A stretch of DNA of 64,000 bases from Gammaproteobacteria bacterium (GTDB taxonomy: Bacteria; Pseudomonadota; Gammaproteobacteria; Steroidobacterales; PWYM01): the NCBI GenBank assembly GCA_007693855.1, contig RECU01000091.1, positions 1,955 to 65,954 of the forward strand, read 5' to 3'. The notes under the pieces were generated by a model. The model saw only the letters and a program-made list of their open reading frames with translations. It searched no databases and had not been told where the DNA came from. Positions 2,887 to 47,512 of this stretch are shown here, in pieces; positions within the stretch are counted from its first letter, which is position 1; the number at the start of each line of letters is the position of its first letter. Both the position numbers and the translations under genes were made by a program.

Positions 2887-4043
2887 GCGGAAATCTCCTC
2901 CAGGGCGGCGGCCAGCCGCAGGACGTGGTCTTCTTCGAGAACATAGGGGGGCAGCAGTCGCACGATATGCGGATCGGCGCTGCCGCCGGCCATGATGTCG
3001 CGGGCCAGGAGCTCGCGATTGATGTCGCGTGCCGGGCGGGTGGTGCGCAGGCCGAGCAGCAGGCCGGCGCCCTGCACGGCGGTCACCGGACCGACCTGGC
3101 AGTGCTCGCGGATGAGGCGCTCCAGTGTGCCGATGCGCGCGAGCAGATCGGTCTCCTCGATCACCGCGAGCACCGTCTCGACGATGGCGCAGGCCAGCGG
3201 CCCGCCACCGAAGGTCGTGCCGAGATCGCCCACCTGCAGCCCCTCGGCCACGCCGGCGCGGGTCACCAGGGCGCCGACCGGGAAGCCGCCGCCGAGCGAC
3301 TTGGCGAGCGTGGCGACATCCGGGGTGACGCCGGCCCGGCTGATCGCAAGCGCCATGCCACTGCGGCCCATGCCACTCTGCACCTCGTCGCTGATCAGCC
3401 AGGCGCCCGCCGCATCGCAGGCCTCGCGGGCCGCTCGCAACACCGCCAGGGGCAGATCGTAGGCGCCGGCCACACCCTGCACCGGCTCCAGGATCACCGC
3501 GGCGGTGCGCTCATCGACGGCTGCACGCAGCGCCGCCGGGTCATCTCGGGGCACGAACACCGTCTCGAACGGGCGCTGTGGGAAGCCGTACCACTTGTCC
3601 GCCCCCCAGGTCGCGGCGGCCGCCGCTGCGGTGCGGCCGTGGAAGCCGTGTTCGAGCGCGACGATCCGCGGCCGGCCGGTCGCCTTCAGCGCCAGGCGCA
3701 GGGCGTTTTCATTGGCCTCGGCACCCGAGTTGACGAAAAACACATGGCTGAGTCCTGCGGGCATGAACCCGGCGAGGCGCCGCGCGGCCCGGGCGCGAAT
3801 ATCCAGCGCCACGGCATTGCTCTGGAACATCAGCGTCGCGGCCTGGTGGGCGAGCGTGTCGATCAGCCGCGGGTGGCCATAGCCGAGCGCGGTGACGGCG
3901 TGGCCACCATAGAAATCCAGGATCCGGCGCCCATCGGCGGTGTGGATCCAGACGCCTTCGGCGCGGACCGGTTCGATGTCCAGCTGCGCGTAGACCGGCA
4001 GCAGATGCTCGGCTTCGCGGGCGATGACGGTGAGGGCGTGCAT
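2883..4043 (-). CDS. argD: acetylornithine aminotransferase (class III PLP aminotransferase)
   Basis: 386 aa with GGHAVTALGYGHP, NSGAEANE and DEVQSGMGRSG. 4-nt overlap with the argF' start. Sits inside the arg operon. Confidence 0.85.
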   Translation of the reverse strand: MHALTVIAREAEHLLPVYAQLDIEPVRAEGVWIHTADGRRILDFYGGHAVTALGYGHPRLIDTLAHQAATLMFQSNAVALDIRARAARRLAGFMPAGLSHVFFVNSGAEANENALRLALKATGRPRIVALEHGFHGRTAAAAAATWGADKWYGFPQRPFETVFVPRDDPAALRAAVDERTAAVILEPVQGVAGAYDLPLAVLRAAREACDAAGAWLISDEVQSGMGRSGMALAISRAGVTPDVATLAKSLGGGFPVGALVTRAGVAEGLQVGDLGTTFGGGPLACAIVETVLAVIEETDLLARIGTLERLIREHCQVGPVTAVQGAGLLLGLRTTRPARDINRELLARDIMAGGSADPHIVRLLPPYVLEEDHVLRLAAALEEISA

Positions 4044-4088
4044 GGCTAAGGGGTCTCCGGGCGATCGATAGGGCAGGGGTGGCGCGGC

Positions 4089-5150
4089 TCAGGTCCAGCC
4101 GGTGCCCGGCGCGGTCAGGCCGGTGTGCTCGGGCCAGCCGAGCATGCGGTTCAGCCACTGCACACTGCCGCCGGCAGCGCCCTTCAGCAGATTGTCGATG
4201 ACCGAGAACACCGCCACGCTCTCGCCATCGGTGGCGATGCCGAGCTGGGCATAGTTGCTGCCCACCACGTCCTTGAGCTTCGGCGTGCCCTCGACCACGC
4301 TGACAAAGGGCGAGGCCGCATAGAAACGGCGCAGCGCCTCGCGCAGCTCGTTCACCGGCACCGGTTCGCGCAGGCGCGCCTGGAGGGTGGCCTGAATGCC
4401 CCGGGCAAATGGTCCTGAATGGGGGACGAAGTGCAGGCGGGGTCGATGGCCGGTGGCGGCCTCGATCAGCCCGGTCACCTCCGGCGCATGCCGGTGACCC
4501 AGCGGGGAGTAGGCATAGAGGTTGGCATGGCGCACCGGATGATGGGTGGTGGCCAGCGGCGTGCGCCCGGAACCGGTGGACCCGGTGATGGCGGCGACGA
4601 ACAGGTCCTCTTCGACCAGCCCGAGACTGACCAGCGGCACCGCGGCGAGCAGCATCGCGGTGGCGAAGCATCCCGGGTGACCGACATGCTTCGCCGGCAC
4701 GCCGGCAACATGCTCGGGCAGGCCGCTGGCGAATTCGGCCAGTCGGTGCGGCGCGCCATGCGGGTGGCCGTAGATGCCGGCGTACGTCTCGGCCTCGCGG
4801 AAGCGAAAGTCGGCGGAGACGTCGACCAGGCGGATATCGGTGTCGACCTGTGCGGCTGTGGTCAGCAGCTGGTCGATCATCGCCGCAGCCGCCCCATGCG
4901 GGGCCGCGCAGAACACCGCCATGCGTGGCACGACCGCCAGCAGCTCCGGGAGACTGTCGGGCGCACTGAAGCGGGTATCGCGATACAGCGGCGCCAGGTG
5001 GCCGAAGGTCTCCGCGATCGCCGCCCCCGCCTGACTCTCCGAGACTGCCGCGGCGAGGTCGAGGTGCGGGTGGCCGGCCACCAGGCGCAGCAACTCGCCG
5101 GCGACATAGCCGGTTGCGCCCAGGACGGTCACGGGCCAGGTCTCGTTCAC
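4089..5150 (-). CDS. argC: N-acetyl-gamma-glutamyl-phosphate reductase
   Basis: 353 aa. N-terminal VTVLGATGYVAGELLRLVAGHP NAD-binding motif and the GCFATA active-site Cys region. GTG start forms a GTGA overlap with the upstream gene stop. Confidence 0.9.
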   Translation of the reverse strand: MNETWPVTVLGATGYVAGELLRLVAGHPHLDLAAAVSESQAGAAIAETFGHLAPLYRDTRFSAPDSLPELLAVVPRMAVFCAAPHGAAAAMIDQLLTTAAQVDTDIRLVDVSADFRFREAETYAGIYGHPHGAPHRLAEFASGLPEHVAGVPAKHVGHPGCFATAMLLAAVPLVSLGLVEEDLFVAAITGSTGSGRTPLATTHHPVRHANLYAYSPLGHRHAPEVTGLIEAATGHRPRLHFVPHSGPFARGIQATLQARLREPVPVNELREALRRFYAASPFVSVVEGTPKLKDVVGSNYAQLGIATDGESVAVFSVIDNLLKGAAGGSVQWLNRMLGWPEHTGLTAPGTGWT

Positions 5151-6226
5151 GCCAGCGCCTCCTGGTTGCTGCGGCGGATCGGCAGGCCGAGTTGCGTCTG
5201 CAGGAGATCGCCAAGCTCCGCGCCATTGGCCAGTGCATTGACGGCGGCAACGCCGAGGCGGTCGCGAATGATGTCGATACCCACCTGGTTGTCGGTGGCC
5301 GGGCCGGTGACCACGGCAGGCTCGATGTCGAACTCCTCACGCAGCAGCTTCACCCCTCCCCAGGCCGCCACCGGGTCGTTCGCGCAGAGTACCGTGCAGG
5401 TCAGGGCCTGGCGGATGGCCGGGTCGCGCAGGATGGCATCGACGCCATAGGCGCCCAGCAGCCCGTCGCCGAGTTCGAAGACGATCACGTCGGGCTTCTC
5501 GCCGGCCAGGCGCGTGAGCAGCGTGCGTGTCAGGGCAGGGCCATTGGCGGCGGTGGTGGCGACGATGCCGAAATCCGAGAACAGCAGGGTATTGCGGGCG
5601 CCGGCGTCCTCCATGGCCAGGACGTCGCGGCGCAGTGCCACGCCCGTGGCCTTGAAGCCGTCGACCACCAGGCCATAGTGGCGGAAGCGGCCGATGATCG
5701 CCGAGGCGGCCGCGGTCTTGCCGGCGTCCATGCTGGTGCCGGCGAGCGCGACCACGGGGATCCCGTGGGTCTCCAGCGGTGGTGCCTCGGCGAGCTTGCC
5801 GATGCCCATGCGTGCGGGCACGCCGATGCGCTCGCCGAGATAGGGAAAGTGCAGCACCGTGCCGAGCACCCGGCAGTCGAACGGCTGGCCATAATCGGGA
5901 TTCGCGGAATCACACACGCCGAGCACGCCGCCGAGGTTGAGGATCTGGACGACATCGCCGGGTGTCAGCTGTGTCGGCAGGTGCCCCGAGTAGCCGAACA
6001 GGGCCTTGCGGTGGCCCAGTGCGCCAACGATCACGTCACCGCGGCGGATTTTGGCCATGCGACCGCTGGTGAGCTCGAGCGTGTTGTACGTGGTCTTGGA
6101 GTTCAGCACCTCGACCGCGACCAGTACGCCTTCTTCACAGGGGATACGGTCGCTCACACGGATTTCGCGCGAGAGATTCAGGTGATGGGCGACGGAGGCG
6201 ATCTTGTCGACGATAACGGTACGCAT
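5147..6226 (-). CDS. uncharacterised two-domain protein with a SIMIBI-like P-loop (AGTSMDAGKT), embedded in the arg operon
   Basis: ORF 5147..6331. ATG at 6224-6226 (MRTVIVDKIAS...) lies 20 nt after the argG stop. Beta-rich N-terminal half; C-terminal half has GTSMDAGKT, FKATG and VIVFELGDGLLG. Its stop overlaps the argC GTG start. Confidence 0.7.
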   Translation of the reverse strand: MRTVIVDKIASVAHHLNLSREIRVSDRIPCEEGVLVAVEVLNSKTTYNTLELTSGRMAKIRRGDVIVGALGHRKALFGYSGHLPTQLTPGDVVQILNLGGVLGVCDSANPDYGQPFDCRVLGTVLHFPYLGERIGVPARMGIGKLAEAPPLETHGIPVVALAGTSMDAGKTAAASAIIGRFRHYGLVVDGFKATGVALRRDVLAMEDAGARNTLLFSDFGIVATTAANGPALTRTLLTRLAGEKPDVIVFELGDGLLGAYGVDAILRDPAIRQALTCTVLCANDPVAAWGGVKLLREEFDIEPAVVTGPATDNQVGIDIIRDRLGVAAVNALANGAELGDLLQTQLGLPIRRSNQEALA

Positions 6227-9569: not shown

Positions 9570-12500
9570 TCAGCGCTCGACGGTGAAGATGACATCCGCG
9601 GAAGACTGCTCACCCGAGGCGGCCTCGAGCGTCCAGCGGTTGCTCAGGCGGTAGCGCAGACGCAGCTCGTTGACGGCCTCGAACAGGCCCACACCGTAGC
9701 TGACGAACAGCCTCGGTCCGAGGTACTTGCCCACCACCAGGGAGGCCGAGCCGGGTTCCGCGCCGGCGGCGACACCGACCTCATCGAAGCCCAGGCGCCC
9801 GCCGATCTCCCGAGCCAGCAGATTGCCGCCGGAGAGCGCCAGCGAGTTGGCGGCGCTGTTCAGTGCATCCTGTTCGCCGCTGTCGAGGTCGTTGATGCTC
9901 TTGCCGATGGTCAGGTAGGACAGCGCCTCGGCGCGGGGCATTGGTGGATCCGAGAATACGCTGATTTCCGGTTCGAACAGATTGCCGCGCACCTGCGCGC
10001 CGGCCGTGATGTTGTCTACCCGCCGTACCGCGCGGATGTCGAGACCGGGGTTGTCGATGGCCCCGCCAGTAAACAGCAGGCGGCCCTGCTCGATGGTCAG
10101 TCGCTGGCCGAAGGCACCAAAGCTGCCGTCCACCACCCGCACCTCGCCACGTCCGGTGGCCACGCCATCGTCGCCCTGCAGTGCCAGCAGGCTGCCCTCG
10201 ACGCGACCGCGAAGGCCTGCGACATCAAGACGGACCTCCGGCCCGACGTTCACCCGCACGGCGTAGCCGACGGTGAGTCGCTCCGCATCGCGGGCGCGCT
10301 CGCCCACGATGACCGTGTCCGGGCTCTCCGAGACCGCGCCCGTGCCCTGTACCAGCCCGGTGATGCGGGCCTGTGGAATCTCGACTGCGCCGTTGATCTG
10401 CAGGTGTCTGTCCCGGAATGTCAGACCAAGATCGGGGCTGGCGAGGACGCGGGCCTCGGGCAGGTCCACCAGCAGGAGCTGCTGGCCGCTGAGGCTGGCC
10501 ACGCCGGCGAATCCTTCCATAAAGCTGAACCGGCCCTGGCTTTCCAGCCTGCCCTCGCCGGTCTGTGCACTCAGTTCGAAGCGCAGGTCATCAGGGGCAA
10601 GCTCGACGCGGGCGTTGATCTCGCGCGGTGCGATCCCGAGTACGGGCAACTGCGCGGCACCGTCGCGCCAGTTCAGCTCCCCCCGCGTGACGGGTGCGCG
10701 CAGGCTGCCACCGACGTCCAGTCGCGCTGACAGGCTGCCCTGCAACGCCGCGAGGTCTGGCACCAGCTCGGCGACCAGTGCCAGCTGCCCGAGCTCTGCG
10801 GTCAGGGTTGCCTGCAGCGGCAGCTCTGGATCGTTCCAGCCTACGCTGAACTCGCCCTCCACGAGATCGTCGCCTGCGAGTGCGACGGCCACGCGGCCGC
10901 GCGCCTCCTCGCGGTCGCCGCGCAGCGATACTGCCGCAGAGGCCCAGCCCAGCAGCTCCTCTTCAGGCCGTTCCTCGAGGAACAGCACACCGTCGTTCAC
11001 GGCCAGGCCGCCGCCCAGGCTGGCGAAACCCGCCTCGTCGGCATCCACGACGACATTGCCGGCCACCATGCCCGTGGCCACCAGGCCGTTGCCCAGCCAG
11101 CGGGTCAGCCCCTCGAGGTCCAGCGCGGAGATACCGAGCTCGCCCCGCCAGGCGGCCCCGCCGCGCCAGTCCCCGGCCAGACATACCCGGCCGAGGGTGC
11201 CGTCCATGCAGGTGGTCTCCACCCGACCGGCGTCCCGGCCAAGGAGGAGGGCGCTGGGCGTCTCCAGGGCCCAGACGATTTCCTCGGCCAGCACCAGCGT
11301 GAGGTCCTCCAGGCGCCCCGCCCACTGCCCGGCGCCCTGGTCGAGCCCGCCATCGATCTCGAGCACGAGGCTCGACTCGCCGCGGCGGGCGTCAAGGGTG
11401 GCCGTGTGGCTCCCGGGGGTGCCTGAGCCCTCGAGACTGAGCGTATCGATCAGGGTGTCCTCGCTCCGGAGCTCCGTGAGCCGAATGGCGAGCGCCGAGC
11501 GGTTGGCGGCGTCCAGGTCGACATCGATGTATGCCTCCAGGGCGCCGAGGAACCATTGCGCATAGCGCAAACGGGCAGCCTCGAGGTCCAGCGCCAGCGC
11601 GGGCAGGTCGCGCTGGCCGTGCAGCCGACCCGCCAGCGCGACCCGGCCGCCGGCACCCGGCATCAGGTCGTTGAGGTTGTCGGCATCCAGCGCGAAGCCA
11701 AGATCGAGCGTCTCGCCGAGCCCACCCTCCGCGGAGAGCTGTGCACCTCCGACGGCCACCCGCAGCGTGTCGACCTGCAGCGTGTCGCCGCGCAGCGCCA
11801 CCCGGACTTCCCCGGCGACATCCCGATTGCGCAGCTGCCCCCCAAGGGGCGCGAGCTCGACGACCAGATCCGCCTCGTCACCGAGTTGGCCGCGCAAGGC
11901 CAGCTCTGCGGCCAGTCGCCCTGTCCAGCCGGGGTAGTGGCTGCCTGGATCGATCTCGCGAAAGGCCAGGGTGAAGTCCATGTCCGCCCCTTCGGCCCAG
12001 GCGATGCGGCCACCACCCTCGGCAGTGCCATCCAGCAGCGCCAGCCGCAGGCGGCTGAACTCGGCGTGTCCAGCATCTCCGCGAGCCTCGAGATCGAGGG
12101 CCAACGGAGGTTGCTCGGGGAGCTGCACTGCGGCGTCGAGCGTCGCCGTCCAGGTCAGTGCGTCGGCAGCAAGCAGGGCCTGCCCGTTCCCGCGCAACCG
12201 CACCTGGCCGTCCTCGTCATCGGCGGCCAGTCGATCGACCCAGAGTGTCCGCTCCCGCAGGCGACCCTCGAGCGACAGCTCGACCGCAGGCAGGTCGCCC
12301 GTGCGACCGCGCGCGGCCAGCGCGAAGTCGTAGGCTTCGGCGCCGCCACGTGCATCGACGGCCAGGCGCTCGAGGTCGAACTGGCGGGGGCTGCCGTCCA
12401 GTGGCCAGCCGAGATTCTCGGCTTCCACGACCAACTCCGCCGCAAGCTCATCGGCAGGGGTGAGTTGGCCGCGGGCCCGCAGCACACCGCCGTCGGCGGT

Positions 12501-13502
12501 TTCGACCCGGGCGGTCTCGACCCGCGCCACGCCGTCCTGCCAACCAGCGATGAGGTCGATCTCCACCGGGCCGGCCACCCACCCTGGTGCAGCCACCTCG
12601 CCCTGCAGCCGGCTGCGGGCCACCTCGCCACGCACCACCAGGTCGGCGCGGGTCCCGCCAAGGGTCTCGGGCCAGAGGCCACCGTCGGGTGCGAGGGGCG
12701 CCAGGGTCAGCTGCAGCGACCAGGCAGGTGCGTCCGGCAGCCCCTGGAGTTGGCCGGCAAGCCGGGCCTCGAGCAGCCCGGCGAGGCGCTGGTCGAGGGT
12801 GAGATCCGCAAGCGGGCCGCGCAGTTGCGTAGTGCCCGTGAGCGTCGAGGTGGCGTCGGGCAGCTCGATCTGCCACTGCAGATCCAGCGACTGCGGCTCG
12901 GCCAACGCGGTCGCCACTCTGCCCTCGGCGTCGAGCTGGACGCGGAGGTCACCGCGACGCAGATCGAGCTTGAGTTCGCGCAGCGACGCCCGCCGTCCGC
13001 GCCAGCCTGCGGCCAGATCCAGCGACAGGTCTTCGATCTGGACACTCTCCCCCGTCAACAGCCGACCGCCACGGACCTGGAGTTTCTCGATCTCGACGCG
13101 TACCGGCAGCTCGAGCGCTTCCGGCCAGTCCTTGCGCCCCTCGGGTGGGGGCTCCGGCGGCGGCGTCCCCCCTTCGCGCAGGACCACCGTGGGGGACTCG
13201 ACCGACAGCGCCAGCACACGGATTTCGCGCCGGTAGACCAGCCGCCAGGGTCGCCAGTCCAGGCTCAGGGCGGGGATGTCGACCTCGACAGCATCGAGTT
13301 CCACCCGCAGACCCTCGAGCTGCAGGGGGCCTGCGAGACGCCCGTGCGCGGCGTCGATCTGCACAGGCACCGCGTCGAGTGCGGTGATGCGCGCCAGCGC
13401 GAAGCGCAGCCCCGCCTCGGTGCTGAGCAGCCACGCCAGCACTGCGCTCAGGGCGACGAGCACCAGGGGCAGCGACCACAAGAGCAACCGTCGCAGGATC
13501 AC
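9570..13502 (-). CDS. tamB: translocation and assembly module subunit TamB
   Basis: 1310 aa. N-terminal signal-anchor and DUF490-type C-terminus (...VGKYLGPRLFVSYGVGLFE...LRLRYRLSNRWTLEA). 4-nt overlap with tamA. Confidence 0.9.
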   Translation of the reverse strand: MILRRLLLWSLPLVLVALSAVLAWLLSTEAGLRFALARITALDAVPVQIDAAHGRLAGPLQLEGLRVELDAVEVDIPALSLDWRPWRLVYRREIRVLALSVESPTVVLREGGTPPPEPPPEGRKDWPEALELPVRVEIEKLQVRGGRLLTGESVQIEDLSLDLAAGWRGRRASLRELKLDLRRGDLRVQLDAEGRVATALAEPQSLDLQWQIELPDATSTLTGTTQLRGPLADLTLDQRLAGLLEARLAGQLQGLPDAPAWSLQLTLAPLAPDGGLWPETLGGTRADLVVRGEVARSRLQGEVAAPGWVAGPVEIDLIAGWQDGVARVETARVETADGGVLRARGQLTPADELAAELVVEAENLGWPLDGSPRQFDLERLAVDARGGAEAYDFALAARGRTGDLPAVELSLEGRLRERTLWVDRLAADDEDGQVRLRGNGQALLAADALTWTATLDAAVQLPEQPPLALDLEARGDAGHAEFSRLRLALLDGTAEGGGRIAWAEGADMDFTLAFREIDPGSHYPGWTGRLAAELALRGQLGDEADLVVELAPLGGQLRNRDVAGEVRVALRGDTLQVDTLRVAVGGAQLSAEGGLGETLDLGFALDADNLNDLMPGAGGRVALAGRLHGQRDLPALALDLEAARLRYAQWFLGALEAYIDVDLDAANRSALAIRLTELRSEDTLIDTLSLEGSGTPGSHTATLDARRGESSLVLEIDGGLDQGAGQWAGRLEDLTLVLAEEIVWALETPSALLLGRDAGRVETTCMDGTLGRVCLAGDWRGGAAWRGELGISALDLEGLTRWLGNGLVATGMVAGNVVVDADEAGFASLGGGLAVNDGVLFLEERPEEELLGWASAAVSLRGDREEARGRVAVALAGDDLVEGEFSVGWNDPELPLQATLTAELGQLALVAELVPDLAALQGSLSARLDVGGSLRAPVTRGELNWRDGAAQLPVLGIAPREINARVELAPDDLRFELSAQTGEGRLESQGRFSFMEGFAGVASLSGQQLLLVDLPEARVLASPDLGLTFRDRHLQINGAVEIPQARITGLVQGTGAVSESPDTVIVGERARDAERLTVGYAVRVNVGPEVRLDVAGLRGRVEGSLLALQGDDGVATGRGEVRVVDGSFGAFGQRLTIEQGRLLFTGGAIDNPGLDIRAVRRVDNITAGAQVRGNLFEPEISVFSDPPMPRAEALSYLTIGKSINDLDSGEQDALNSAANSLALSGGNLLAREIGGRLGFDEVGVAAGAEPGSASLVVGKYLGPRLFVSYGVGLFEAVNELRLRYRLSNRWTLEAASGEQSSADVIFTVER

Positions 13503-15295
13503 AGGTCCGGCCTGATGCTGATGTGCAGCCGCGGTGAGCGGCTTTCGGTGAGCGATTGGGCGACCTCCACGCGAATGCGGCCGATCGGTGTGAGAAAGTG
13601 GAGCCCGACACCGGCAGAGACTTCCGGTGTGTCATCCAGGCGGGCGAGCGCGCCGCCGCTGTCGATGAAGGCGGCGACATGCCAGGGCCCCTGGATGCGC
13701 CGCTGGGCCTCGACGCTGCCGAAGACCAGGTGGCGACCGCCGATGCTCCGGCCTTCGTCGTCCGTCGGACCGAGCTTGTTGAAGCCATAGCCGCGCACGC
13801 TCTGGTCACCGCCGGCGAAAAATCGCTGTGACGCCGGCAGCTCGTCGAAGCCGTCGACGATGCCAATGCCGAGTTCCGCGCGCAGGGCCAGGCGCCAGTC
13901 ATCGCTGGGTGAAAGGATCCGGCTCGCGCCGAGATGGAGGCGCAGAAAGTCGGTCTTGGCGGCCAGCAGCCCGTGCGAGCCGCGGACCTCGGCCCGCAGA
14001 CGATGCCCCTCCGTGGGCACGAGCGGATCATCGGCGATCAGCCGCTCGAAGCCGATTCCCGGCACGATCAGGGTGTCGGCAAAGCGCGCACCGTCGGGCA
14101 GACGGGTACGTTCATCCACCACGTCGGCGAACAGGTTGCGCTGCCAGTTGCCGAGCACGCGTCGATGGTTGACGCCGATGGTCGCGCGTTGACTGCGCAC
14201 GTCCGCCAGATCCTCGGCCGCCAGGCTGCTGCGGAAAGACAGGCGTTCGCGCAGCGGATCGCCGAAGGGGACGATGTACTGGGTGGTGAGTTCGGTCAGT
14301 GGCTGGGAGACCTGCAATTGCATATTGGCGCGGTGGCCGCGCTGGTTGATGCGCCGCCAGTCCCAGCCGATGCTGCCGCGGGCCCGCGTGTCGCTGCCGT
14401 AGCCGATGCCGAGCCGAATGCGCTGGCGCCGTGAAGGGACGGTCTCGATATTCACGGGGATGGACCGGGTCAGCGGATTGCGCTCGCCGGTTTCGACGAC
14501 CACGTTGGCAAAGTACTGGCTGTCGGTCAGCGCGTACTGGGTCCGCAGCAAGCGCTCGGTGTCGAAAGGCTCACCCTCGCGGGTGAACACCATGCGCTCG
14601 ATCAGCGCCTGGTTGAGGATGTCCTGGTCGATCACCACCTCACCGAAGCGATAGCGGGGGCCGGTGTCCATCACCAGCACGGCGTTGGCCGACAGCGCCG
14701 CAGGATCGATCTCCAGTCGCCGTTCGGGGAAGCTTCGGTCGAAGAAGCCGTAGGTGCTTGCGGCGCGCTCCAGGCGGGCGCGCAACTGATCGAAGTCCGG
14801 GTGGCGGAGCTGCGCCCCTGCGACCAGCGGCGTCTCGGCCAGCAGTGTCTGGAACCCGGGGTGGTCGTGCCCTTCGCCGATCACCTCCAGGCGCACCGAG
14901 TTCAGCCGCACAGGCTCCCCTCGGATGATCTCGAATCGTGCGATCCAATCGTTACCCTCGCGGGTGAGGCTGCGCGAGACCACCCGTGCGTCGTAGTACC
15001 CGAAAGGCCGCAGCGCCTCGCGGATCTGGCGTGGTGCACGGTCGTAGAGCCGCCGGACTGCGGTCTCCGAGAGGTCCTCGCGTTCGGCGAAACGGACCAG
15101 GTCAAGCCACGCGCGGACATTGGCGGCAGTCTCTCCCTCCACGCCGGTCAGCTGCACGCGGATGCTGGCATCCGCGCTGAGCGAAGCGAACGCGAGCGCA
15201 AGCGTCACCAGTGCAGTCAGGATCCGAGAGCGACGTGGCGGTCGGGGGCATGAGGCCTCGCCCATGAGTGCTGCTCCGGAATCGGTGTGCCCCAT
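13499..15295 (-). CDS. tamA: outer-membrane protein assembly factor TamA (Omp85 family)
   Basis: 598 aa. Signal peptide (LALAFASLSADA), POTRA-like repeats and a C-terminal beta-barrel ending ...PRLHISIRPDL. The start may be the ATG at 15265. Confidence 0.9.
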   Translation of the reverse strand: MGHTDSGAALMGEASCPRPPRRSRILTALVTLALAFASLSADASIRVQLTGVEGETAANVRAWLDLVRFAEREDLSETAVRRLYDRAPRQIREALRPFGYYDARVVSRSLTREGNDWIARFEIIRGEPVRLNSVRLEVIGEGHDHPGFQTLLAETPLVAGAQLRHPDFDQLRARLERAASTYGFFDRSFPERRLEIDPAALSANAVLVMDTGPRYRFGEVVIDQDILNQALIERMVFTREGEPFDTERLLRTQYALTDSQYFANVVVETGERNPLTRSIPVNIETVPSRRQRIRLGIGYGSDTRARGSIGWDWRRINQRGHRANMQLQVSQPLTELTTQYIVPFGDPLRERLSFRSSLAAEDLADVRSQRATIGVNHRRVLGNWQRNLFADVVDERTRLPDGARFADTLIVPGIGFERLIADDPLVPTEGHRLRAEVRGSHGLLAAKTDFLRLHLGASRILSPSDDWRLALRAELGIGIVDGFDELPASQRFFAGGDQSVRGYGFNKLGPTDDEGRSIGGRHLVFGSVEAQRRIQGPWHVAAFIDSGGALARLDDTPEVSAGVGLHFLTPIGRIRVEVAQSLTESRSPRLHISIRPDL

Positions 15296-17233: not shown

Positions 17234-18016
17234 TCAGCCGCCGTAAGCCAGTTGCAGCCGGCTGCTGCCGGTGGGCCGGGTGTCGGGGCCAAACCGCCGC
17301 TCATGCCAGTGCAGTGTCCTCTCATGATCGACGACGAGGACGCTGGAGCAGCGTGTCCCGTAGTCACTGCCGGCCACGAAAATCGCCGACAGCTGGCGCT
17401 CGCGGTCAGTGGGCAGTCCGCTCTCGGGCAGTTCGAAGTCCTCGGCGGGGGCCGGGTCGGCGAGCAGCCCGAAAGCCGCATCGACCAGAGCCTCCAGCGT
17501 ATCGCCGTTATCCGCCAGCGCGCTGCCCAGGATGTCCCGCGCCCGCCGCGTCTTTGGCCAGTCGACGCCGGGCGGGGCATTGCTGAGTGCATGAACGCCC
17601 GGACCCGGGGTGACCGGTCCGGCGGTGCGATTGGAAGTCACCAGCAGCGCCTCGCCGGTGAGCAGCAGCAGATTGAACCCCCGATACCGGGCTGCCGTGT
17701 CCGCCAGGTCCTGTGCGAAGGCGGCCGGTGGGCGGGTATCGGCGAGAAACGCTACCGGCAGTTCACCGCGCGAAGGAGCCGCTGCCAGCGTGCCTGAAGC
17801 AGGCTCGCGGACGTTGGTCAGCGCTGCGATCCGGCCGCCGGGACTCGCGCCCAGCCAGGTCCCGCCGGCCTCGAGATCGCGTCCGGCGATGATGCCGACC
17901 GGCGAATTCCAGCGGTGCACAGCGGCGGTCGGTCGCGCATGGAATTCGTCACGATTGGCGGCGAGCACCAACGGAAAGCGGGGATGGCACTGCCAGGCAA
18001 TGGCGATCAGGCACAT
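17234..18016 (-). CDS. NRDE family protein (TANGO2/DUF833-like)
   Basis: 260 aa. MCLIAIAW... start and the LAANRDEF motif. Confidence 0.8.
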   Translation of the reverse strand: MCLIAIAWQCHPRFPLVLAANRDEFHARPTAAVHRWNSPVGIIAGRDLEAGGTWLGASPGGRIAALTNVREPASGTLAAAPSRGELPVAFLADTRPPAAFAQDLADTAARYRGFNLLLLTGEALLVTSNRTAGPVTPGPGVHALSNAPPGVDWPKTRRARDILGSALADNGDTLEALVDAAFGLLADPAPAEDFELPESGLPTDRERQLSAIFVAGSDYGTRCSSVLVVDHERTLHWHERRFGPDTRPTGSSRLQLAYGG

Positions 18017-18062
18017 GCCCCCATTATAGGACGCTCGGCCGGAACACCGGGCTGGCGGGTCT

Positions 18063-19553
18063 TCAGCTCATGGCGCGCTGCGGGTCAGCCGCGGTCGTCT
18101 CCGCTTCGGGCTGCGAGTCGCGCAGGTGTGCGATGGCGTTGGCGTAGTAGGCGATGAGTTTCGCTTCGTCCGGGTTGGCCCGGAAACAACCCGCGTCTTC
18201 AAGCACGATCCGTCGCAGCCGGAGCATCCGCAGGCCGACGTCCACCGCGTAATCGTCACTTTGCCGGGGCAGGTAAACCTGGGCGTTGCGGCTCATCAGT
18301 GTCTGCTGGCGCGCGCGCGCGGATGCCCGGATCTCCTCGACGCTGAAGCTCTCGTCCGGACGCTCGTCGAACAGCGAGGCAATCAGGCTGACCGGCAGCA
18401 CCGGCATCAGCATGCCCACCTCGCGCATGAGATGCTCGGCGAGCTCGACCAGTCGCGTGGCTCTGCCGGGGGCCTGGAGGTCCCGAGGGTCCCAGTCGCG
18501 CTCCGCCAGGTAGGCGCGCAGCGACACGGGTCGGCCGAAGTTCGCGCAGGCATAGCCGTAGCGATACCAGCGCTTGCGCAGTCCGAGCCGCAGGTTGTGC
18601 AGAAGGAAACCGCTGGCCTTGCGGATCGCGGCCCAGCCACTGCGCCGTGGTGCGCCGGGCTGGAGTTCGCCGATGAGCGTGCGATCTTCCAGCACCCGGT
18701 CGTAGTTGATCGCAATGGGCAGGAAGACGATATCCCGCTGCCCCCGTGGATCGAAATCGCGCAGCATGTAGTCGATGAGCCCGACCCGGGGCTCGCGCAG
18801 GGCCCCGTCCCGGCTCAAGCCTCCCTCGGGGAAGACGACCTGTGTCACGCCGCCTTCCACGGCCATCTGGACATACCGTTCCAGCACGCGCCGATACAGT
18901 GGGTTGCCAGAGCCGCGGCGCACGAAATAGGCGCCGACGGACCGGATGATCTGCTGCAGGGGCCAGACCCGCGCCCATTCACCGACCGCGTAGGAGAGCA
19001 CCGTGCGGGTCATGGCCAGGTAGGCGACCAGCACGTAGTCCATGTTGCTGCGGTGGTTGACGACCAGCACCAGGCTGTCATCGTCGCCAACGTTGGAGAT
19101 CGCCTGCTCGTCGAGAAAGCCCAGTCGCACGCGATAGAGTGCGCGGACCAGCTTGCGCGCGAGCCAGCCGCCGAAGCGGAAATACACGTAGGCGTTGAAA
19201 GCCGGGACGATCTCGCGCGCGTACCGCTCGACCCGGTCCATGGCCACGCCGCGGGGCTCTCCAGTGGTCTCACAGTGCTCGGCTACGGTTCGGGCAATTC
19301 GCGGATCGTAGACGAGCCGGTCGATGAGCACCTGCCGCCGGGTGAGCGACAGGGACGGGATCTGCAGATTCAGGCTGCGGTTGACGCTGTCGATCAGCTG
19401 GTTGGCCTGGCGGCGAAAATACCAGCGCACGGTCGGCAGCAGCAGCCGGGACACCAGCAGCCACAGGGCTATCGCGCCGAAGATCAGCGCCAGCCACAGT
19501 GGGATCACGACCGGTTGATTCAACGCTGGGCCTCCCCGGGTGTCACGCCGCAA
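18063..19553 (-). CDS. glycerol-3-phosphate/lysophospholipid acyltransferase family protein
   Basis: 496 aa. N-terminal TM helix, VVNHRSNMDY (HX4D) and VFPEGGLSRDG motifs. Confidence 0.8.
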   Translation of the reverse strand: MRRDTRGGPALNQPVVIPLWLALIFGAIALWLLVSRLLLPTVRWYFRRQANQLIDSVNRSLNLQIPSLSLTRRQVLIDRLVYDPRIARTVAEHCETTGEPRGVAMDRVERYAREIVPAFNAYVYFRFGGWLARKLVRALYRVRLGFLDEQAISNVGDDDSLVLVVNHRSNMDYVLVAYLAMTRTVLSYAVGEWARVWPLQQIIRSVGAYFVRRGSGNPLYRRVLERYVQMAVEGGVTQVVFPEGGLSRDGALREPRVGLIDYMLRDFDPRGQRDIVFLPIAINYDRVLEDRTLIGELQPGAPRRSGWAAIRKASGFLLHNLRLGLRKRWYRYGYACANFGRPVSLRAYLAERDWDPRDLQAPGRATRLVELAEHLMREVGMLMPVLPVSLIASLFDERPDESFSVEEIRASARARQQTLMSRNAQVYLPRQSDDYAVDVGLRMLRLRRIVLEDAGCFRANPDEAKLIAYYANAIAHLRDSQPEAETTAADPQRAMS

Positions 19554-19563
19554 GCCAACCTTA

Positions 19564-20499
19564 CTACCGGCTTGCGTGCGCGCCCAGCAGCGTGACCAGC
19601 GACGGACCGTCCCAGCGGTCGAACCAGGTGGCGATCAGGCGCCGGGAAATGGACAGGGCCGGGGGCAGTCGGACCTCGCCCTCGGCGATCTCCGCTCGGC
19701 TGAACCATCGCGCATCGGCAAGCTCGCCGTCATTCAGGTGAATCGCCGTGCTTGCGGCCTCGGCGTGGAAACCCAACATCAGCGACGAGGGAAACGGCCA
19801 GGGCTGAGAACTGTGATAGCGCGGGTCACGGATCCGCACGTCGGTCTCCTCCTCGACCTCGCGGGCAACGGCATCCTCGAGGCTCTCACCCGGCTCGACG
19901 AAACCGGCGATGGTCGAGTAGCGGCCGGGTGGCCACTTGGCCTGGCGGCCGAGCAGGCAGCGGTCGCCGTCGCTGACCAGCACGATGATCGCCGGGTCCA
20001 CCCGCGGAAACAGCCGCCGCCCGTCGGGCGCAGCCAGGACATGCCCGCCGGCCGTCGCCGCCAGCGGCTCGCCGGTTTCGCTGCAGTAACGATGTCGGCT
20101 GCGCCAGCCGACCATGGCCTTGGCATAGGCGAGGATGGCGGCCTCGACCGGCGCCAGCCGTTGACCCACCTGCCAGAGGTCGACGAACTCGCCCTCCAGC
20201 GTGTCAGGGCTCTGCGGGAGTGCGAGCGCAAACACTGCGCGCGTCTCGTGCAGCCCCAGGAAGACTGCGTCCTCGACGTCGATGTCGGCGTCCAGAGCGG
20301 CGAGTTGGGTCCGTGTCAGAAAGCGCGCACGCGGGGCTTCGAGGCTGGCCACCAGGCAGCGCTCGGCGTGGACCGGCACGAACAGCGTGTCCTCCGCTGC
20401 CAGCGCTGCCGTCAGCCAGGCGGGATCCTGGCGCAGCCGGCTGGCACGGTCGAGCCAGGGCCCCGCGAAGTGGTTGGCGACTTCGGCGCCGTAACCCAT
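19564..20499 (-). CDS. nudC: NudC-like Nudix hydrolase (NADH pyrophosphatase family)
   Basis: Within ORF 19564..20586. ATG at 20499 lies 1 nt after the rraA stop. Nudix box GFVEPGESLEDAVAREVEEETDV and the NudC-specific SQPWPFPSS. Confidence 0.8.
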   Translation of the reverse strand: MGYGAEVANHFAGPWLDRASRLRQDPAWLTAALAAEDTLFVPVHAERCLVASLEAPRARFLTRTQLAALDADIDVEDAVFLGLHETRAVFALALPQSPDTLEGEFVDLWQVGQRLAPVEAAILAYAKAMVGWRSRHRYCSETGEPLAATAGGHVLAAPDGRRLFPRVDPAIIVLVSDGDRCLLGRQAKWPPGRYSTIAGFVEPGESLEDAVAREVEEETDVRIRDPRYHSSQPWPFPSSLMLGFHAEAASTAIHLNDGELADARWFSRAEIAEGEVRLPPALSISRRLIATWFDRWDGPSLVTLLGAHASR

Positions 20500-20500
20500 G

Positions 20501-21001
20501 TCAGTCGACGAGCCGGCGGTCGCAGAGCACCACGCCATCGTCATCGGCGTACAGCCAGTGGCCAGGCACGAAGCTTGCGCCGGCAAAGCGCAGCGGCACG
20601 TCTACCTGCCCCTGGTTCTGTTTGCGGCTCTTGGCGGGATTGGTGGCCAGGGCCAGCACCCCGATCGGCATCTGCGCGAGCACCGCACTGTCGCGTACGC
20701 AGCCATGGACGAGCAGGCCCGCCCAGTGGTTGTCGATCGCCAGCTGGCCCAGCTGATCTCCGACCAGTGCGACGCGTAGCGAGCCGACGCCGTCGACGAC
20801 CAGCACATGCCCATCACCCGGCGTCTCCAGCGTGGCGCGCACCTGGGTATTGTCCTCCAGGGTCGAGACCGTACGGATCGGCCCGCAGAACCGGCGCTGT
20901 CCGCCGAAGTGGCGGAACAGAGGGTCAGGGACCTCGAGCTCGTCGCCGAATTCGTCGTAGAGGTCTGCGGTGGCGAAATGGGGGGGGGCGGCGGCGCTCA
21001 T
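20501..21001 (-). CDS. rraA: RraA family protein (RNase E regulator / HMG aldolase fold)
   Basis: Within ORF 20501..21187. ATG at 21001 gives MSAAAPPHFATADLYDEFGDELEV...VLVVDG...GDQLG...NGWAG-like HWAGLLVHGCVRD. Confidence 0.85.
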   Translation of the reverse strand: MSAAAPPHFATADLYDEFGDELEVPDPLFRHFGGQRRFCGPIRTVSTLEDNTQVRATLETPGDGHVLVVDGVGSLRVALVGDQLGQLAIDNHWAGLLVHGCVRDSAVLAQMPIGVLALATNPAKSRKQNQGQVDVPLRFAGASFVPGHWLYADDDGVVLCDRRLVD

Positions 21002-21093
21002 GGCGGCTCCTCTATGGGGCACAGGTGAAGCGCCACAGTATGGCAAAAAATGCTGCAGTTTGATGGCTGTCGCCAGGCCCCCAAGGGGCAAGG

Positions 21094-21708
21094 TCAGCCG
21101 AAGCCTGCCCCGAGGTGCTCGCCGGCGATCTCGTGATCTTGGGGTTTTCGGCAGGGGCCTGTTGGCGTCACCAGGCAGCTTGGGCACTGTTGCGGCTCGA
21201 TGCTGAGCAGATCTCGCACATAGTGCGCATCGCAGTGCTCACAGACCTCCAGGGCCAGTTCGTCTCCCGCCTGCAGGCTGCCCAGCAGCGCCCAGGCCCA
21301 CTCGATCGTCAACAGTGCGCCATCCTTGCCGCCGTGCAGGACCAGATAACGCTCATAGGCCAGGCAGAGCCGATCACCCGTGTCGAGCTGGCAGTCACCG
21401 CATACCGCACGGGTCTCCGGATCAAACAGGCCACCGGCCACGAAGGCGGCCGCCAGCGACGCCGCATGACGCCGATGGCGCGGCGTCTTCAGGAACATCG
21501 AGACCTGGGAGGGCGTGCGGCCGCGGCGCCGGCGCACGGCATTGCCAGGCTGGTGCTTGAAGTAGCTGCCGTAGAGGCGGCGGATACGGTCGTCGGACAG
21601 GCCGGTGAGCTGACGGATGGTGCCCGTACGCGCCTCATGAGCGATCAGGCGCAGCGCCAGATCATGTCGTGCCTGTTCGCTACGGTAGCGGTCATCGGTA
21701 CTGCGCAT
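21094..21708 (-). CDS. FlhC-like transcriptional activator subunit
   Basis: 204 aa. Colinear with E. coli FlhC (from memory): ARxxxIxxLTGLSxxRIRRLY, HAS, AYERYL, LLTIEWAWAL and a CxxC-x17-CxxC zinc site (CEHC...CPSC). Confidence 0.7.
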   Translation of the reverse strand: MRSTDDRYRSEQARHDLALRLIAHEARTGTIRQLTGLSDDRIRRLYGSYFKHQPGNAVRRRRGRTPSQVSMFLKTPRHRRHAASLAAAFVAGGLFDPETRAVCGDCQLDTGDRLCLAYERYLVLHGGKDGALLTIEWAWALLGSLQAGDELALEVCEHCDAHYVRDLLSIEPQQCPSCLVTPTGPCRKPQDHEIAGEHLGAGFG

Positions 21709-21841
21709 GGGCCCTCCCCGCTCGCGCGTCTACTTATAGCCAAAAAGCATAGATACTCTACTAGACCCTCCTGGTGAAAAAAAATAAACATATTTGCCGG
21801 TTAAGGTCAAAAAAACGACCGCTATGCGGACAGGAGGCGCT

Positions 21842-22432
21842 ATGCACGGGACCCTGTCGGACCCCTCCCCGATGGTCCAGCTCGCCGAGCTGAATCGGCT
21901 TTTTCTCCGAATCATCGGTCCCCTGGTGCAGTCCGGGGCTGCCCAGCCGGCGTTTCACCGGATTGGCCTGGAGGGCGCCCCCTACCGTGCCCTGCGGGCC
22001 TTGGGGCCCCAGGCACGGGAGCAACTGGCGAGCACCCCGGTGGCGCTGTTCCGGCTGCACCTGGCGCCCGGTGGCGTCGGCGATCGGGTGGCCGCGGATG
22101 CCTGGCTGGCAGTCGAGAGTCAGGATGCCCGGTTGGCCTTCACGGTCAGTGCGTTGCTGACCGCCTGGCACATGCTGCGCAGTGCGCCGGACTGGGCGCG
22201 TCTGGGCTTCGGGCTCACACCACGGGAGCTGGTCTGGCTGGCCGAACTGCCGCTGTCCGAGCTGCCGGCGCTGGCGGTCCCTGCGGCCGAAGCGCTGCGG
22301 CTGCGCTTCCTCCGCCGCGGCCTGTTCTGGGATCGGCTTGCGGACTGCGCCGCCGCCGGTGAGGATCGGGAGAGCCTGCGGCTGACGCTGTACACGGCCG
22401 TGTACCTTGCGAGTGCCGAACAGCATGTCTGA
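21842..22432 (+). CDS. protein with two tandem FlhD-like repeats (hypothetical)
   Basis: In ORF 21794..22432. AGGAGG sits 5 nt before the ATG at 21842. Two internal segments (FHRIGLEGAPYRALRALGPQAREQLASTPVALFRLHL and WARLGFGLTPRELVWLAELPLSELPALAVPAAEALRLRF) resemble the FlhD core [37 protein letters not shown]. Confidence 0.55.
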   Translation: MHGTLSDPSPMVQLAELNRLFLRIIGPLVQSGAAQPAFHRIGLEGAPYRALRALGPQAREQLASTPVALFRLHLAPGGVGDRVAADAWLAVESQDARLAFTVSALLTAWHMLRSAPDWARLGFGLTPRELVWLAELPLSELPALAVPAAEALRLRFLRRGLFWDRLADCAAAGEDRESLRLTLYTAVYLASAEQHV

Positions 22433-22539
22433 GGGCTGCGGCGTTACAATGGCAGATTGGTTGTGCGCTGGCGCCCGCCCGCAACTCTCGGGGTGGACGG
22501 TCGCCGGTGCGGATTCGTTGAAGGACATTCCCGGCAGTC

Positions 22540-23472
22540 ATGGACGCATTGCGGCTCGAGCACCTGCGCAAGACCTACCCGAATGGCGTGCAGGCCCTGC
22601 GCGGTATAGATCTTGTGGTCGAGGAGGGGGATTTCTTCGCGCTGCTGGGTCCCAATGGCGCGGGCAAGACCACCACCATCGGGATCATCACGTCGCTGGT
22701 CAACAAGACCGCGGGCCGGGTAGTCGTCTTCGGGCACGACATGGACCGCCATCGCGAGGCTGCCAAAGCCTGCATCGGTGTGGTGCCGCAGGAGGTCAAT
22801 CTGGCGATGTTCGAGAAGCTCATCGACATCGTCATCAACCAGGCGGGGTATTACGGTGTCCGCCCACGGCTTGCCCGCCAGCGGGCCGAGAAATATCTCA
22901 AGGCCCTGCACCTGTGGGACCGCCGCCACGACATCGCCCGCAATCTCTCCGGTGGCATGAAGCGCCGGCTGATGATCGCGCGGGCATTGATGCACGAGCC
23001 GCGCCTGCTGATCCTCGATGAGCCCACCGCTGGTGTGGATATCGAGATCCGCCGTTCCATGTGGGCGTTCATGCGGGCGATCAACGACGCCGGCGTGACC
23101 ATCATCCTCACCACGCATTATCTCGAGGAGGCCGAGAGCCTCTGTCGTCACGTGGCCATCATCGATCGCGGCACCATCGTGGAGAACGATCGCATGTCGC
23201 GGGTGCTGCGCAAGCTGCAGTACGAGACCTTCGTGCTCTCGCTCGAGCAGACGGTCGAGGCCGCGCCGGTGCTCGACGGTTATACGGTGCGGCTGCGCAA
23301 CGAGCATGAGATCGAGGTCGAGGTCTCGCGGGAGCAGAACGTCAATCGGCTGTTCGCCCTGCTGAGTGACCAGGGCATCGGCGTGCACAGCATGCGTAAC
23401 AAGGCGAATCGCCTGGAAGAGCTTTTCATGCGCCTGACCGAGCGCTCTGGCTCGCCGGAAGACCGCCCGTGA
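22540..23472 (+). CDS. ABC transporter ATP-binding protein (ABC-2/YadG-like)
   Basis: 310 aa. Walker A GPNGAGKTT, signature LSGGMKRR, Walker B LLILDEPT. Confidence 0.9.
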   Translation: MDALRLEHLRKTYPNGVQALRGIDLVVEEGDFFALLGPNGAGKTTTIGIITSLVNKTAGRVVVFGHDMDRHREAAKACIGVVPQEVNLAMFEKLIDIVINQAGYYGVRPRLARQRAEKYLKALHLWDRRHDIARNLSGGMKRRLMIARALMHEPRLLILDEPTAGVDIEIRRSMWAFMRAINDAGVTIILTTHYLEEAESLCRHVAIIDRGTIVENDRMSRVLRKLQYETFVLSLEQTVEAAPVLDGYTVRLRNEHEIEVEVSREQNVNRLFALLSDQGIGVHSMRNKANRLEELFMRLTERSGSPEDRP

Positions 23473-23579
23473 GTGTCGGCCGCGGAGATGTCGATCGCGA
23501 CGCCGCCCGGCCGGAGATCGACGTGGCGCGCGAAGCGGCGCGGGCCGACGACTTCGAACGCGTGTCAGGGCCGGCACCG

Positions 23580-24359
23580 ATGCAGGGCCTGCTGGCGGTC
23601 AACCTGGTCGGTCTGCGCACCATCATGCGTCGCGAGATCAGGCGCGTCACCCGTATCTGGGTGCAGACCATCGTGCCGCCGGCGATCACCATGACGCTGT
23701 ATTTCGTGATTTTCGGCAGCCTGATCGGCCGGCGTATCGGCGAGATGGACGGTCTGCCCTACATCACCTATATCGCCCCGGGCCTGATCATGATGGCCGT
23801 GATCACCAATTCGTTCTCGAACGTAGTCTCGTCATTCTTCAGCGCCAAGCTGCAGCTGTATCTCGAGGAGTTGCTGGTCTCGCCGCTGTCCACGGCAACC
23901 ATCGTGGTGGGCTACATGATTGGCGGTATCTTCCGCGGGCTGGCGGTCGGTCTGCTGGTGACGGTGGTCGCGCTGCTGTTCACCCGCATCAGCGTCGAGC
24001 ATCCCTTCATAACGCTGTCGGTGGTGGTGCTGGTGGCCGCGATTTTCTCGCTCGCGGGGCTGCTGAATGCCATTTTCGCCAAGACCTTCGATGACATCTC
24101 CATCGTGCCGACCTTCGTGCTCACGCCGCTGACCTATCTCGGGGGCGTATTCTTCTCGATCTCTCTGCTCGCACCTGCGTGGCAAGCCGCAGCGATGGTC
24201 AACCCGATCCTCTACATGGTCAATGCGTTTCGTTATGGCATGCTGGGCGTGTCGGACATCCCCATCGGGGTGGCCTACGCGCTGATTCTGTCGCTGCTGG
24301 TGATCCTGTTCGTGGCCAATATGTGGCTGTTGGCGAAGGGACGGGGAATTCGCAGCTGA
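23580..24359 (+). CDS. ABC-2 type transporter permease (YadH-like)
   Basis: In ORF 23469..24359. ATG at 23580 gives a 259-aa, six-TM protein (MQGLLAVNLVGLRTIMRREIRR...). The upstream 37 codons are charged and unlike a permease. Confidence 0.85.
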   Translation: MQGLLAVNLVGLRTIMRREIRRVTRIWVQTIVPPAITMTLYFVIFGSLIGRRIGEMDGLPYITYIAPGLIMMAVITNSFSNVVSSFFSAKLQLYLEELLVSPLSTATIVVGYMIGGIFRGLAVGLLVTVVALLFTRISVEHPFITLSVVVLVAAIFSLAGLLNAIFAKTFDDISIVPTFVLTPLTYLGGVFFSISLLAPAWQAAAMVNPILYMVNAFRYGMLGVSDIPIGVAYALILSLLVILFVANMWLLAKGRGIRS

Positions 24360-42844: not shown

Positions 42845-43453
42845 ATGAATACGGTTTTCGTCATCGCGGCACTGGCGTTATGCATCGGCCTGGCGGTTGT
42901 GCTGCTGGCGGGCGCGGAGCGGTTGCTGGCCAGTACGGCCGGGAAACTGGTGCTGCTCGCGGGGATTGGTGTGCTGCCGCTGGCCGTCTCGGTCGGCGGC
43001 CTGACCGCGGGGGTGGTCAGCTCGAGCCAGACCTCGTTCTGTCTCAGCTGCCACGAAATGACGCCGTATGGCCAGAGCCTGTTCGTCGACGGGGATTCGC
43101 TGGTCGCGGTGCACTTCCAGGACCGTCTGGTCGATCGTGACTATGCCTGTTATGTGTGTCACAAGGACTACGCCATGTTCGGTGACGTGCGTACCAAGCT
43201 CCACGGGCTGAACCATCTGCTGGTGCATTACTTCGGTGAAGCCTCGGATCCGATCGAGCTCTACGCCCCCTACCCGAATGCGAACTGCCTGCACTGTCAC
43301 GACGACTCCCGACGCTATCTGGACGTCGAGGTGCATGTCAGGTTCGCTGCGGACATGGCCCGTGATGAGCGCTCCTGTCTGGATTGCCACCGCAGCAGCC
43401 ATGATCTTGACGCCGTGCACGCCGGACAGTTCTGGCAGGCCGTGGCGCGATGA
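42845..43453 (+). CDS. NapC/NirT-like membrane-anchored tetraheme cytochrome c
   Basis: 202 aa. AAGGTGG precedes the ATG. Two N-terminal hydrophobic helices. Four CxxCH motifs (CLSCH, CYVCH, CLHCH, CLDCH); FCLSCHEM resembles NapC FCISCHEM. Confidence 0.8.
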   Translation: MNTVFVIAALALCIGLAVVLLAGAERLLASTAGKLVLLAGIGVLPLAVSVGGLTAGVVSSSQTSFCLSCHEMTPYGQSLFVDGDSLVAVHFQDRLVDRDYACYVCHKDYAMFGDVRTKLHGLNHLLVHYFGEASDPIELYAPYPNANCLHCHDDSRRYLDVEVHVRFAADMARDERSCLDCHRSSHDLDAVHAGQFWQAVAR

Positions 43454-47502: not shown

Positions 47503-47512
47503 AGATCAGCCC

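Follow-up and report, generated by a model that had tools for sequence, protein, structure and literature searches.

The stretch of DNA analysed here, referred to throughout as the window, comprises 64,000 nt of contig RECU01000091.1 (assembly GCA_007693855.1; PWYM01, Steroidobacterales) and carries two divergent genes whose products resemble FlhC and FlhD. We consider it probable that this locus encodes a chromosomal, vertically inherited two-subunit transcription factor of the FlhDC family with a new layout. A protein with the FlhC fold and its zinc site (hereafter the C subunit) and a double-FlhD protein (the D subunit) are co-inherited as a fixed divergent pair. The heteromer FlhD4C2 is among the textbook examples of bacterial transcription factors, and regulators of its kind are already known; what appears from sequence comparison to be new is a large chromosomal branch of the family in which the D subunit carries two fused FlhD domains and the divergent layout of the genes is fixed. 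To our knowledge, the only relatives of FlhD4C2 that have been characterised activate the conjugation of resistance plasmids and of integrative and conjugative elements (ICEs), and we know of no regulator of this kind that has been studied in Woeseiaceae, a widespread marine sediment family. Woeseiaceae have been described as an abundant part of the core community of marine sediments. Literature searches for FlhC together with Woeseia, and for FlhDC-like, FlhC-like and FlhD-like proteins, returned no description of the family to which the pair belongs, and flhC, flhD and fleQ are not listed in the supplements of the comparative paper on Woeseiaceae.

Both open reading frames (ORFs) lie where an earlier sequence-only reading of this DNA had placed them. 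That reading held the 204-residue minus-strand product to be colinear with FlhC, including a CxxC...CxxC zinc site, and this has been borne out by Pfam, by profile comparison, by an AlphaFold2 (AF2) model and by the invariance of the cysteines. Residues 13-178 of the C subunit align colinearly with positions 11-160 of the 173 in PF05280 (E 2e-4), and a precomputed match to the same model is present in many of its relatives. When a family profile built from 36 relatives was compared with the PDB, FlhC was the sole strong match, with an E-value of 6.8e-12 for the Cupriavidus necator chain 8j56_C and of 2.5e-7 for the Escherichia coli chain 2avu_E, in which chain residues 4-171 align with profile positions 6-187. 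The four cysteines C156, C159, C175 and C178 are invariant across these 36 relatives, down to 35% identity, and align with the paired cysteines in FlhC of E. coli and of C. necator; equally invariant is the N-terminal motif EARTgTIrxxTGLSDDRIRRLY ... RRRRGxxP. The AF2 model has a predicted local distance difference test score (pLDDT) of 89.9, and its top three Foldseek matches, 8j56_F, 8j56_C and 2avu_E, are all FlhC (E 2e-5, probability 1.0), with target-normalised template modelling (TM) scores of 0.74-0.76 and the next match at E 0.48. Both profile and Foldseek thus place 21094-21708 with FlhC, and the C subunit is, as judged from profiles and the predicted structure, a distant homologue with the FlhC fold and a putative four-cysteine zinc site.

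For the divergent 196-residue product, which had been described as FlhD-like, the resemblance stands, as FlhD profile matches were obtained; however, the protein is not a simple FlhD but a tandem of two domains, unlike FlhD itself, which has a single domain of about 116 residues and forms homodimers. A D-family profile built from 19 relatives matched FlhD alone in the PDB (8j56_A, E 4.3e-6; 5hxg_B, 3e-3; 1g8e_A, 0.09), and this match was confined to profile positions 4-97, corresponding to FlhD residues 6-99 of 8j56_A. A 215-sequence alignment was then divided at residue 88/89 and its halves were compared by hhalign, which aligned the N half with FlhD at a probability of 95% (P 4.5e-8) and the C half with FlhD at 89% (P 2.5e-6). 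A further profile made from 36 C halves alone (A4), run against every PDB sequence, gave a single significant match, again FlhD 8j56_A (E 3.1e-6; FlhD residues 5-106). Weak matches to PF05247 were found in 5 of the 19 relatives, with a best E-value of 9e-5. In the AF2 model (pLDDT 83.9; predicted TM score 0.83), residues 10-71 form a long helix followed by three short ones and a short strand, an order that recurs in residues 91-154, and Foldseek places FlhD chains at the top, with probabilities of 0.94-0.98 and a TM score of 0.69 by target. The D family comprises 743 representatives (E up to 1e-3), nearly all of 185-240 residues and matched end to end. In terms of these profiles, the D subunit is composed of two tandem FlhD-like domains in one chain, and the same comparison indicates that the two-domain form is the rule across the family.

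The pair had been called an orphan, a description that has to be abandoned. One genome per species was scanned for relatives of the C subunit, which were found in at least 587 species genomes, for the most part of Woeseiaceae, Steroidobacteraceae and unclassified gammaproteobacterial metagenome-assembled genomes (MAGs); the best 80 carriers belong mostly to Woeseiaceae or Woeseia, together with such unclassified MAGs. A profile search for the C subunit yielded at least 2861 protein clusters, some of which, from Woeseiaceae and Steroidobacteraceae, bear the NCBI name 'FlhC family transcriptional regulator', and the named D-subunit entries among the matches listed are all 'hypothetical protein'. 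When all six-frame ORFs of the 92 fetched loci were searched with hidden Markov models (HMMs), 90 loci proved to contain both genes, and in the remaining two the C gene lies within ~130 bp of a contig end. All 90 loci holding both genes have them head to head, with a median spacer of 130 bp (75 loci). Measured against a relative that is ~90% identical, both genes of the window are under purifying selection, with ratios of nonsynonymous to synonymous change (pN/pS) of 0.12 for the C gene and 0.17 for the D gene. The start of the D subunit is best placed at ATG 21842, with AGGAGG 6 nt upstream, in agreement with the N termini of all homologues; a longer form starting at TTG 21794 has no support from the homologues.

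The locus is read as chromosomal and vertically inherited because its gene order is kept across Woeseiales and Steroidobacteraceae, because searches for plasmid, phage and defence relatives gave no match, and because the window has neither tRNAs nor a break in composition. In both groups a gene for a NudC-like NUDIX protein and then TANGO2 come after the C gene, all on one strand. The spacing is operon-like: the gap past the C gene is 5-88 bp where genes were called, and is 12-13 bp to NudC in three of the fetched loci (L005, L087 and L092); tamA and tamB lie further downstream in these three, in L001 and in the window. An ABC-2 exporter lies downstream of the D gene in nearly all Woeseiales-type loci. 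The window agrees with this conserved order, plus an inserted rraA and a plsB-like gene. Neither tblastn against 72,556 plasmids nor the PHROG and PADLOC searches matched the pair, the window has no Rfam matches, and no integrase, tra, int or rep genes are present among the window genes checked. Apart from the spacer, where the GC content is 0.61 compared with ~0.68 around it, no break in composition is seen. A mobile-element origin was therefore rejected on the negative plasmid, PHROG, PADLOC, tRNA and Rfam searches.

Table 1. Features of the regulator locus and its neighbours in the window
Feature	Position	Strand	Basis
C subunit, FlhC-like, 204 aa	21094-21708	-	ORF, Pfam, profile, AF2
C-subunit putative zinc-site codons C156, C159, C175, C178	21175-21243	-	alignment of relatives
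Head-to-head control region, 133 bp, AT-rich	21709-21841	.	spacer between both start codons
Sigma-70-like promoter TTGACC, 18-nt spacer, TATTTT, facing the C gene	21781-21810	-	consensus match
Degenerate box remnant GCAAATATGT within the promoter spacer	21788-21797	-	aligned to the CCATATATGG boxes of relatives
D subunit, FlhD-like domain 1, residues 1-88	21842-22105	+	profile, hhalign, Foldseek
D subunit, FlhD-like domain 2, residues 89-196	22106-22432	+	C-half profile, hhalign
ABC-2 exporter: ATPase 22540-23472, permease 23469-24359	22540-24359	+	Pfam ABC_tran, ABC2_membrane
RraA-like	20501-20992	-	Pfam
NudC-like NUDIX	19564-20586	-	Pfam
PlsB-like acyltransferase	18063-19553	-	Pfam
TANGO2	17234-18016	-	Pfam

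The surroundings of the pair (Table 1) are those of an ordinary chromosome. The neighbours recognised in the sequence-only reading, namely RraA-like and NudC-like genes on one side and the ATPase and permease of an ABC-2 exporter on the other, were recovered by Pfam, and its statement that flagellar, chemotaxis and conjugation genes are missing nearby holds for the ~47 window genes checked by domain scan or by inference from syntenic annotation, none of which is of these kinds. Nor was any flagellar or chemotaxis gene found in the ~10-kb flanks of ~90 loci. Among the other contents of the window are genes for arginine biosynthesis, a two-component system, a menaquinone operon, tamAB, a gene for an S9 peptidase, fakA/degV, fadE and mdh. 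Over 17234-20992(-) and 9570-15295(-), rraA, nudC, the plsB-like gene, TANGO2, the S9 peptidase gene, tamA and tamB all point in one direction, and the backbone of nudC, TANGO2 and tamAB is common to Woeseiales-type and Steroidobacteraceae-type loci. At a greater distance, over 44297-51128(+) and 55332-57413(-), Pfam domains suggest a near-complete menaquinone cluster, with a chorismate-binding enzyme, a TPP enzyme, an alpha/beta hydrolase, a member of the enoyl-CoA hydratase family, a UbiA prenyltransferase and an MR/MLE enolase, and an AMP-binding ligase is encoded near it on the opposite strand. A small multihaem cytochrome of the NapC/NirT type, which weakly matches MtrC/MtrF domains, is encoded at 42845-43453(+).

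The control region between the two genes confirms the divergent arrangement over a shared AT-rich spacer that had been described, in that its 133 bp have the lower GC content given above. The putative promoter at 21810-21781 is the sole sigma-70-like site in 20400-23000, where shuffled sequences lead one to expect 0.2. The ABC-2 exporter genes lie on the same strand as the D gene and begin 108 bp past its end, and because of this orientation and distance they are probably co-transcribed with it; a scan of the window found no terminator-like site between either regulator gene and its downstream neighbour.

In relatives, the spacer holds conserved palindromes, CCATATATGG, at fixed distances from the ATG of the C gene. 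These boxes stand at -87, -67 and -36 in Woeseiaceae (for example L024, and L003:5934-5974), where they are also written ACCATATATGGT, at -91 and -71 in L010 and L011, and at -80 and -60 in L006-type loci, and the tandem box pattern is C-N-A-N-A-T-N-T-N-G. With at most one mismatch, 102 boxes fall inside the ~130-bp spacers compared with 6 in the other 808 kb fetched. At the same stringency neither the ABC nor the nudC genes of the fetched loci are preceded by a box, so that no extra local targets were found, and the whole window is without one; its remnant GCAAATATGT aligns with the perfect boxes of L010 and L011. Steroidobacteraceae-type spacers are without CCATATATGG boxes and share the sequence GTCAATTGCGGxGCACACTA (L092:6864-7000, L087:5775-6000, L005:5926-6000).

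The operator of NrdR consists of two 16-bp boxes with C4, A6, A8, T9, T11 and G13, separated by a linker of 15-16 bp (PMC13584703). CCATATATGG agrees with this operator at all six highly conserved positions. The distance between the -67 and -36 boxes, 31 bp, corresponds to a 16-bp box plus the canonical 15-bp linker. A relaxed pair of the NrdR type is found in 32 of 75 spacers, as against 9 in 820 kb of background, with position 8 of the -67 box often deviating. On a metagenomic contig of 69% GC (L128), two perfect CCATATATGG boxes at 5794-5834, with 21 nt between the 10-mers, lie directly upstream of a gene for a class II ribonucleotide reductase with barrel and TSCPD domains, 3035-5746(-). 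A wider metagenome scan for tandem boxes gave at least 120 matches (L094-L213), mostly on unrelated and AT-rich contigs; among those listed, 8 are the same locus and 1 is a class II ribonucleotide reductase promoter, and others adjoin GGDEF, TetR or YbjN genes. In the matches listed, paired perfect CCATATATGG boxes are most often separated by 10-11 or 20-21 bp and sometimes by 30-32 bp, values that are close to whole helical turns. The boxes may represent a widespread operator type, and the metagenome matches define no regulon. As far as their sequence allows one to judge, two candidates could read the boxes in relatives: NrdR, or the complex of the C subunit with the fused D chain (DD), the latter as autoregulation. 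One point counts against autoregulation, in that the boxes vanish or degenerate between clades while the N-terminal motif of the C subunit stays invariant. The idea that the RRRRGxxP loop past the helix-turn-helix-like segment acts as an AT-hook-type reader of the A/T core of the box was considered but not adopted, since the loop no more than resembles that motif.

If the locus is a two-subunit regulator as proposed, its mode of action can be sketched by analogy with FlhD4C2. The fused DD chain would take the place of the FlhD homodimer, and the active complex, either (DD)C or (DD)2C2, would be expected to bind DNA and to regulate transcription, with back-to-back promoters in one ~130-bp region possibly coupling the expression of both subunits. 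Candidate targets would be the flhC-like-(rraA)-nudC-TANGO2 unit and the unit of DD gene and ABC-2 exporter, both headed by the pair; nudC/TANGO2 and the exporter are the first candidates because they would, by layout, be transcribed together with it. A distal regulon may exist as well, and a flagellar one is possible since the majority of Woeseiaceae MAGs from sediment encode full sets of flagellar genes (PMC12175321).

Several observations weigh against this interpretation. The curated models do not call the C subunit as FlhC: it scores 21.6 bits on PF05280, below the 27-bit cut-off, and 23 bits on the NCBIfam FlhC equivalog NF009365, for which the cut-off is 216. The D protein of the window has no Pfam match at all, including PF05247. 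The two halves of the D subunit resemble each other weakly in hhalign (probability 59%, P 9e-5; 37% in a smaller earlier alignment), and the Foldseek E-values of its model are ~1, which makes the fold evidence weak by itself, so that the FlhD assignment is carried by the sequence profiles. Heteromer and stoichiometry are drawn by analogy from FlhD4C2 (2AVU) and AcaCD. As to the candidate targets, the ABC-2 exporter is absent from Steroidobacteraceae-type loci and NudC from L006-type loci, and synteny among related orders may reflect inherited gene order and not a functional link. Finally, the best conserved boxes fit the rules for NrdR and differ by clade, and the N-terminal motif of the C subunit does not vary with them.

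An alternative reading is that the pair does not act on its own region but is itself a target of the nucleotide-sensing repressor NrdR, with the flhC-like, nudC and TANGO2 unit belonging to an expanded NrdR regulon in Woeseiaceae. We regard this as doubtful, although several findings are in its favour: in addition to the agreement of CCATATATGG with the six NrdR positions and of the -67/-36 spacing with the canonical linker, the same tandem boxes precede the class II reductase gene in L128, they overlap the expected site of the FlhC-like promoter, and they differ by clade while the presumed DNA-reading motif of the C subunit does not. However, NrdR is regarded as specific for ribonucleotide reductase genes, no nrd gene lies near the pair, the -67 box seldom has A at position 8, and the extra box at 20-bp spacing is non-standard. 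The boxes' C5 and G12 are also conserved more strongly than in what we take to be the general NrdR logo. Among the 120 metagenome matches listed, only one adjoins a reductase gene (with one class II query), and both the window lineage and Steroidobacteraceae are without the boxes. Moreover, control by NrdR bears on how the pair is regulated and not on what it is. A broader proposal includes it, namely that the locus represents a third branch of the FlhDC family, a chromosomal one beside the flagellar FlhDC and the mobile-element SetCD/AcaCD/BisDC, with a fused FlhD dimer and head-to-head genes, a fixed component of the Woeseiales and Steroidobacterales core genome, in charge of a non-flagellar programme and gated by NrdR in Woeseiaceae. 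The programme would cover, for example, nudC, TANGO2, tamAB and the ABC-2 exporter, that is, nucleotide and envelope housekeeping, and NrdR, as a dATP/ATP sensor, would have been extended past ribonucleotide reductase genes. Taken as a whole, we think this quite unlikely.

Flagellar control deserves consideration in its own right, since the pair could be the true flagellar master regulator of its lineage, acting on class II promoters elsewhere on the chromosome, much as FlhDC acts on distant operons in enterobacteria. The homology to FlhC and FlhD is real, NCBI applies the name 'flagellar transcriptional regulator FlhC' to some members, and complete flagellar sets occur in most sediment Woeseiaceae MAGs (PMC12175321). 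Set against this are the 23 bits on the FlhC equivalog where 216 are called for, the different subunit architecture and gene layout, and the lack of any flagellar or chemotaxis gene in the 64-kb window or in ~90 flanking regions, where the conserved neighbours are nudC, TANGO2, tamAB and the ABC exporter. Polarly flagellated Gammaproteobacteria outside the enterics, furthermore, usually rely on FleQ/FlrA, and on balance a flagellar role is unlikely. A domesticated or resident activator of the SetCD/AcaCD/BisDC type is very improbable. The C-subunit profile does align with AcaC of the plasmid pRA1 as well as with FlhC (hhalign probability 95%), and AcaD, at ~200 residues, is near the D subunit in size, but the D profile hardly recognises AcaD, acaD and acaC are co-directional and overlapping, and the housekeeping synteny of the locus is kept across two orders, in native base composition, with neither integrase nor tra, rep or tRNA genes, and the plasmid and PHROG searches gave no match. 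That two unrelated genes merely lie side by side, with a chance resemblance to FlhD, can be considered extremely improbable: it would account for the missing Pfam match and the Foldseek E-values of the D protein, but not for the finding that the full-length and the C-half profiles each retrieve FlhD as the only significant PDB match, nor for the presence of both genes, divergently oriented, in 90 of 90 testable loci.

Should the proposed two-subunit regulator prove correct, its fused D subunit would show an FlhD dimer hard-wired into one chain, and, as a single chain made by nature, would be useful to structural studies of the docking of FlhD dimers on FlhC. It would also raise the question of which roles regulators of the FlhDC class had before flagella and conjugation, or have alongside them.

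Among known systems, one comparison is with BisDC of ICEclc-type elements, an FlhDC-like activator, to which the D family is linked weakly through DUF2857, touched by 2 of the 19 D relatives at E 0.018. BisDC belongs to a cascade for ICE transfer competence and is encoded co-directionally, whereas no ICE genes are found at the pair described here. AcaCD of IncA/IncC plasmids, SetCD of SXT/R391 ICEs and SgaCD of SGI1 are likewise distant FlhDC-family heteromers outside flagellar control, and the subunits of AcaCD co-purify (PMC4207636). These regulators are encoded on mobile elements by co-directional, overlapping D-C operons beside transfer genes, as the sequence-only reading had assumed for the characterised relatives and as is seen in pRA1, where acaD and acaC share a strand and overlap by 4 bp; the present pair is chromosomal and divergent. 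In length, AcaD is similar to the D subunit. However, the D-family profile matches AcaD of pRA1 (L091:40679-41287) with a probability of 1.5%, and only residues 109-169 of AcaD align, weakly, with the FlhD-like core of the profile, so the FlhD-like part of AcaD seems, from this alignment, to lie in its C-terminal half. With so negligible a profile match, AcaD was rejected as a template for understanding the long D subunit.

A further comparison is with FlhD4C2 itself, which in Enterobacteriaceae and Betaproteobacteria is the class I master regulator of flagella and whose structure has been solved for E. coli (2AVU) and C. necator (8J56). The FlhC fold, the colinearity and the zinc site are common to FlhC and the C subunit, FlhD-type helical domains also build the D subunit, and two separate genes are used in both cases. 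The differences are equally clear: flhD and flhC form an operon whereas the pair diverges over ~130 bp, an FlhD of ~116 residues is replaced by a fused tandem of 196, and the pair falls below the curated FlhC and FlhD thresholds. Its genes, unlike those of FlhDC, have no flagellar genes nearby, and keep synteny with nudC, TANGO2, tamAB and the ABC-2 exporter.

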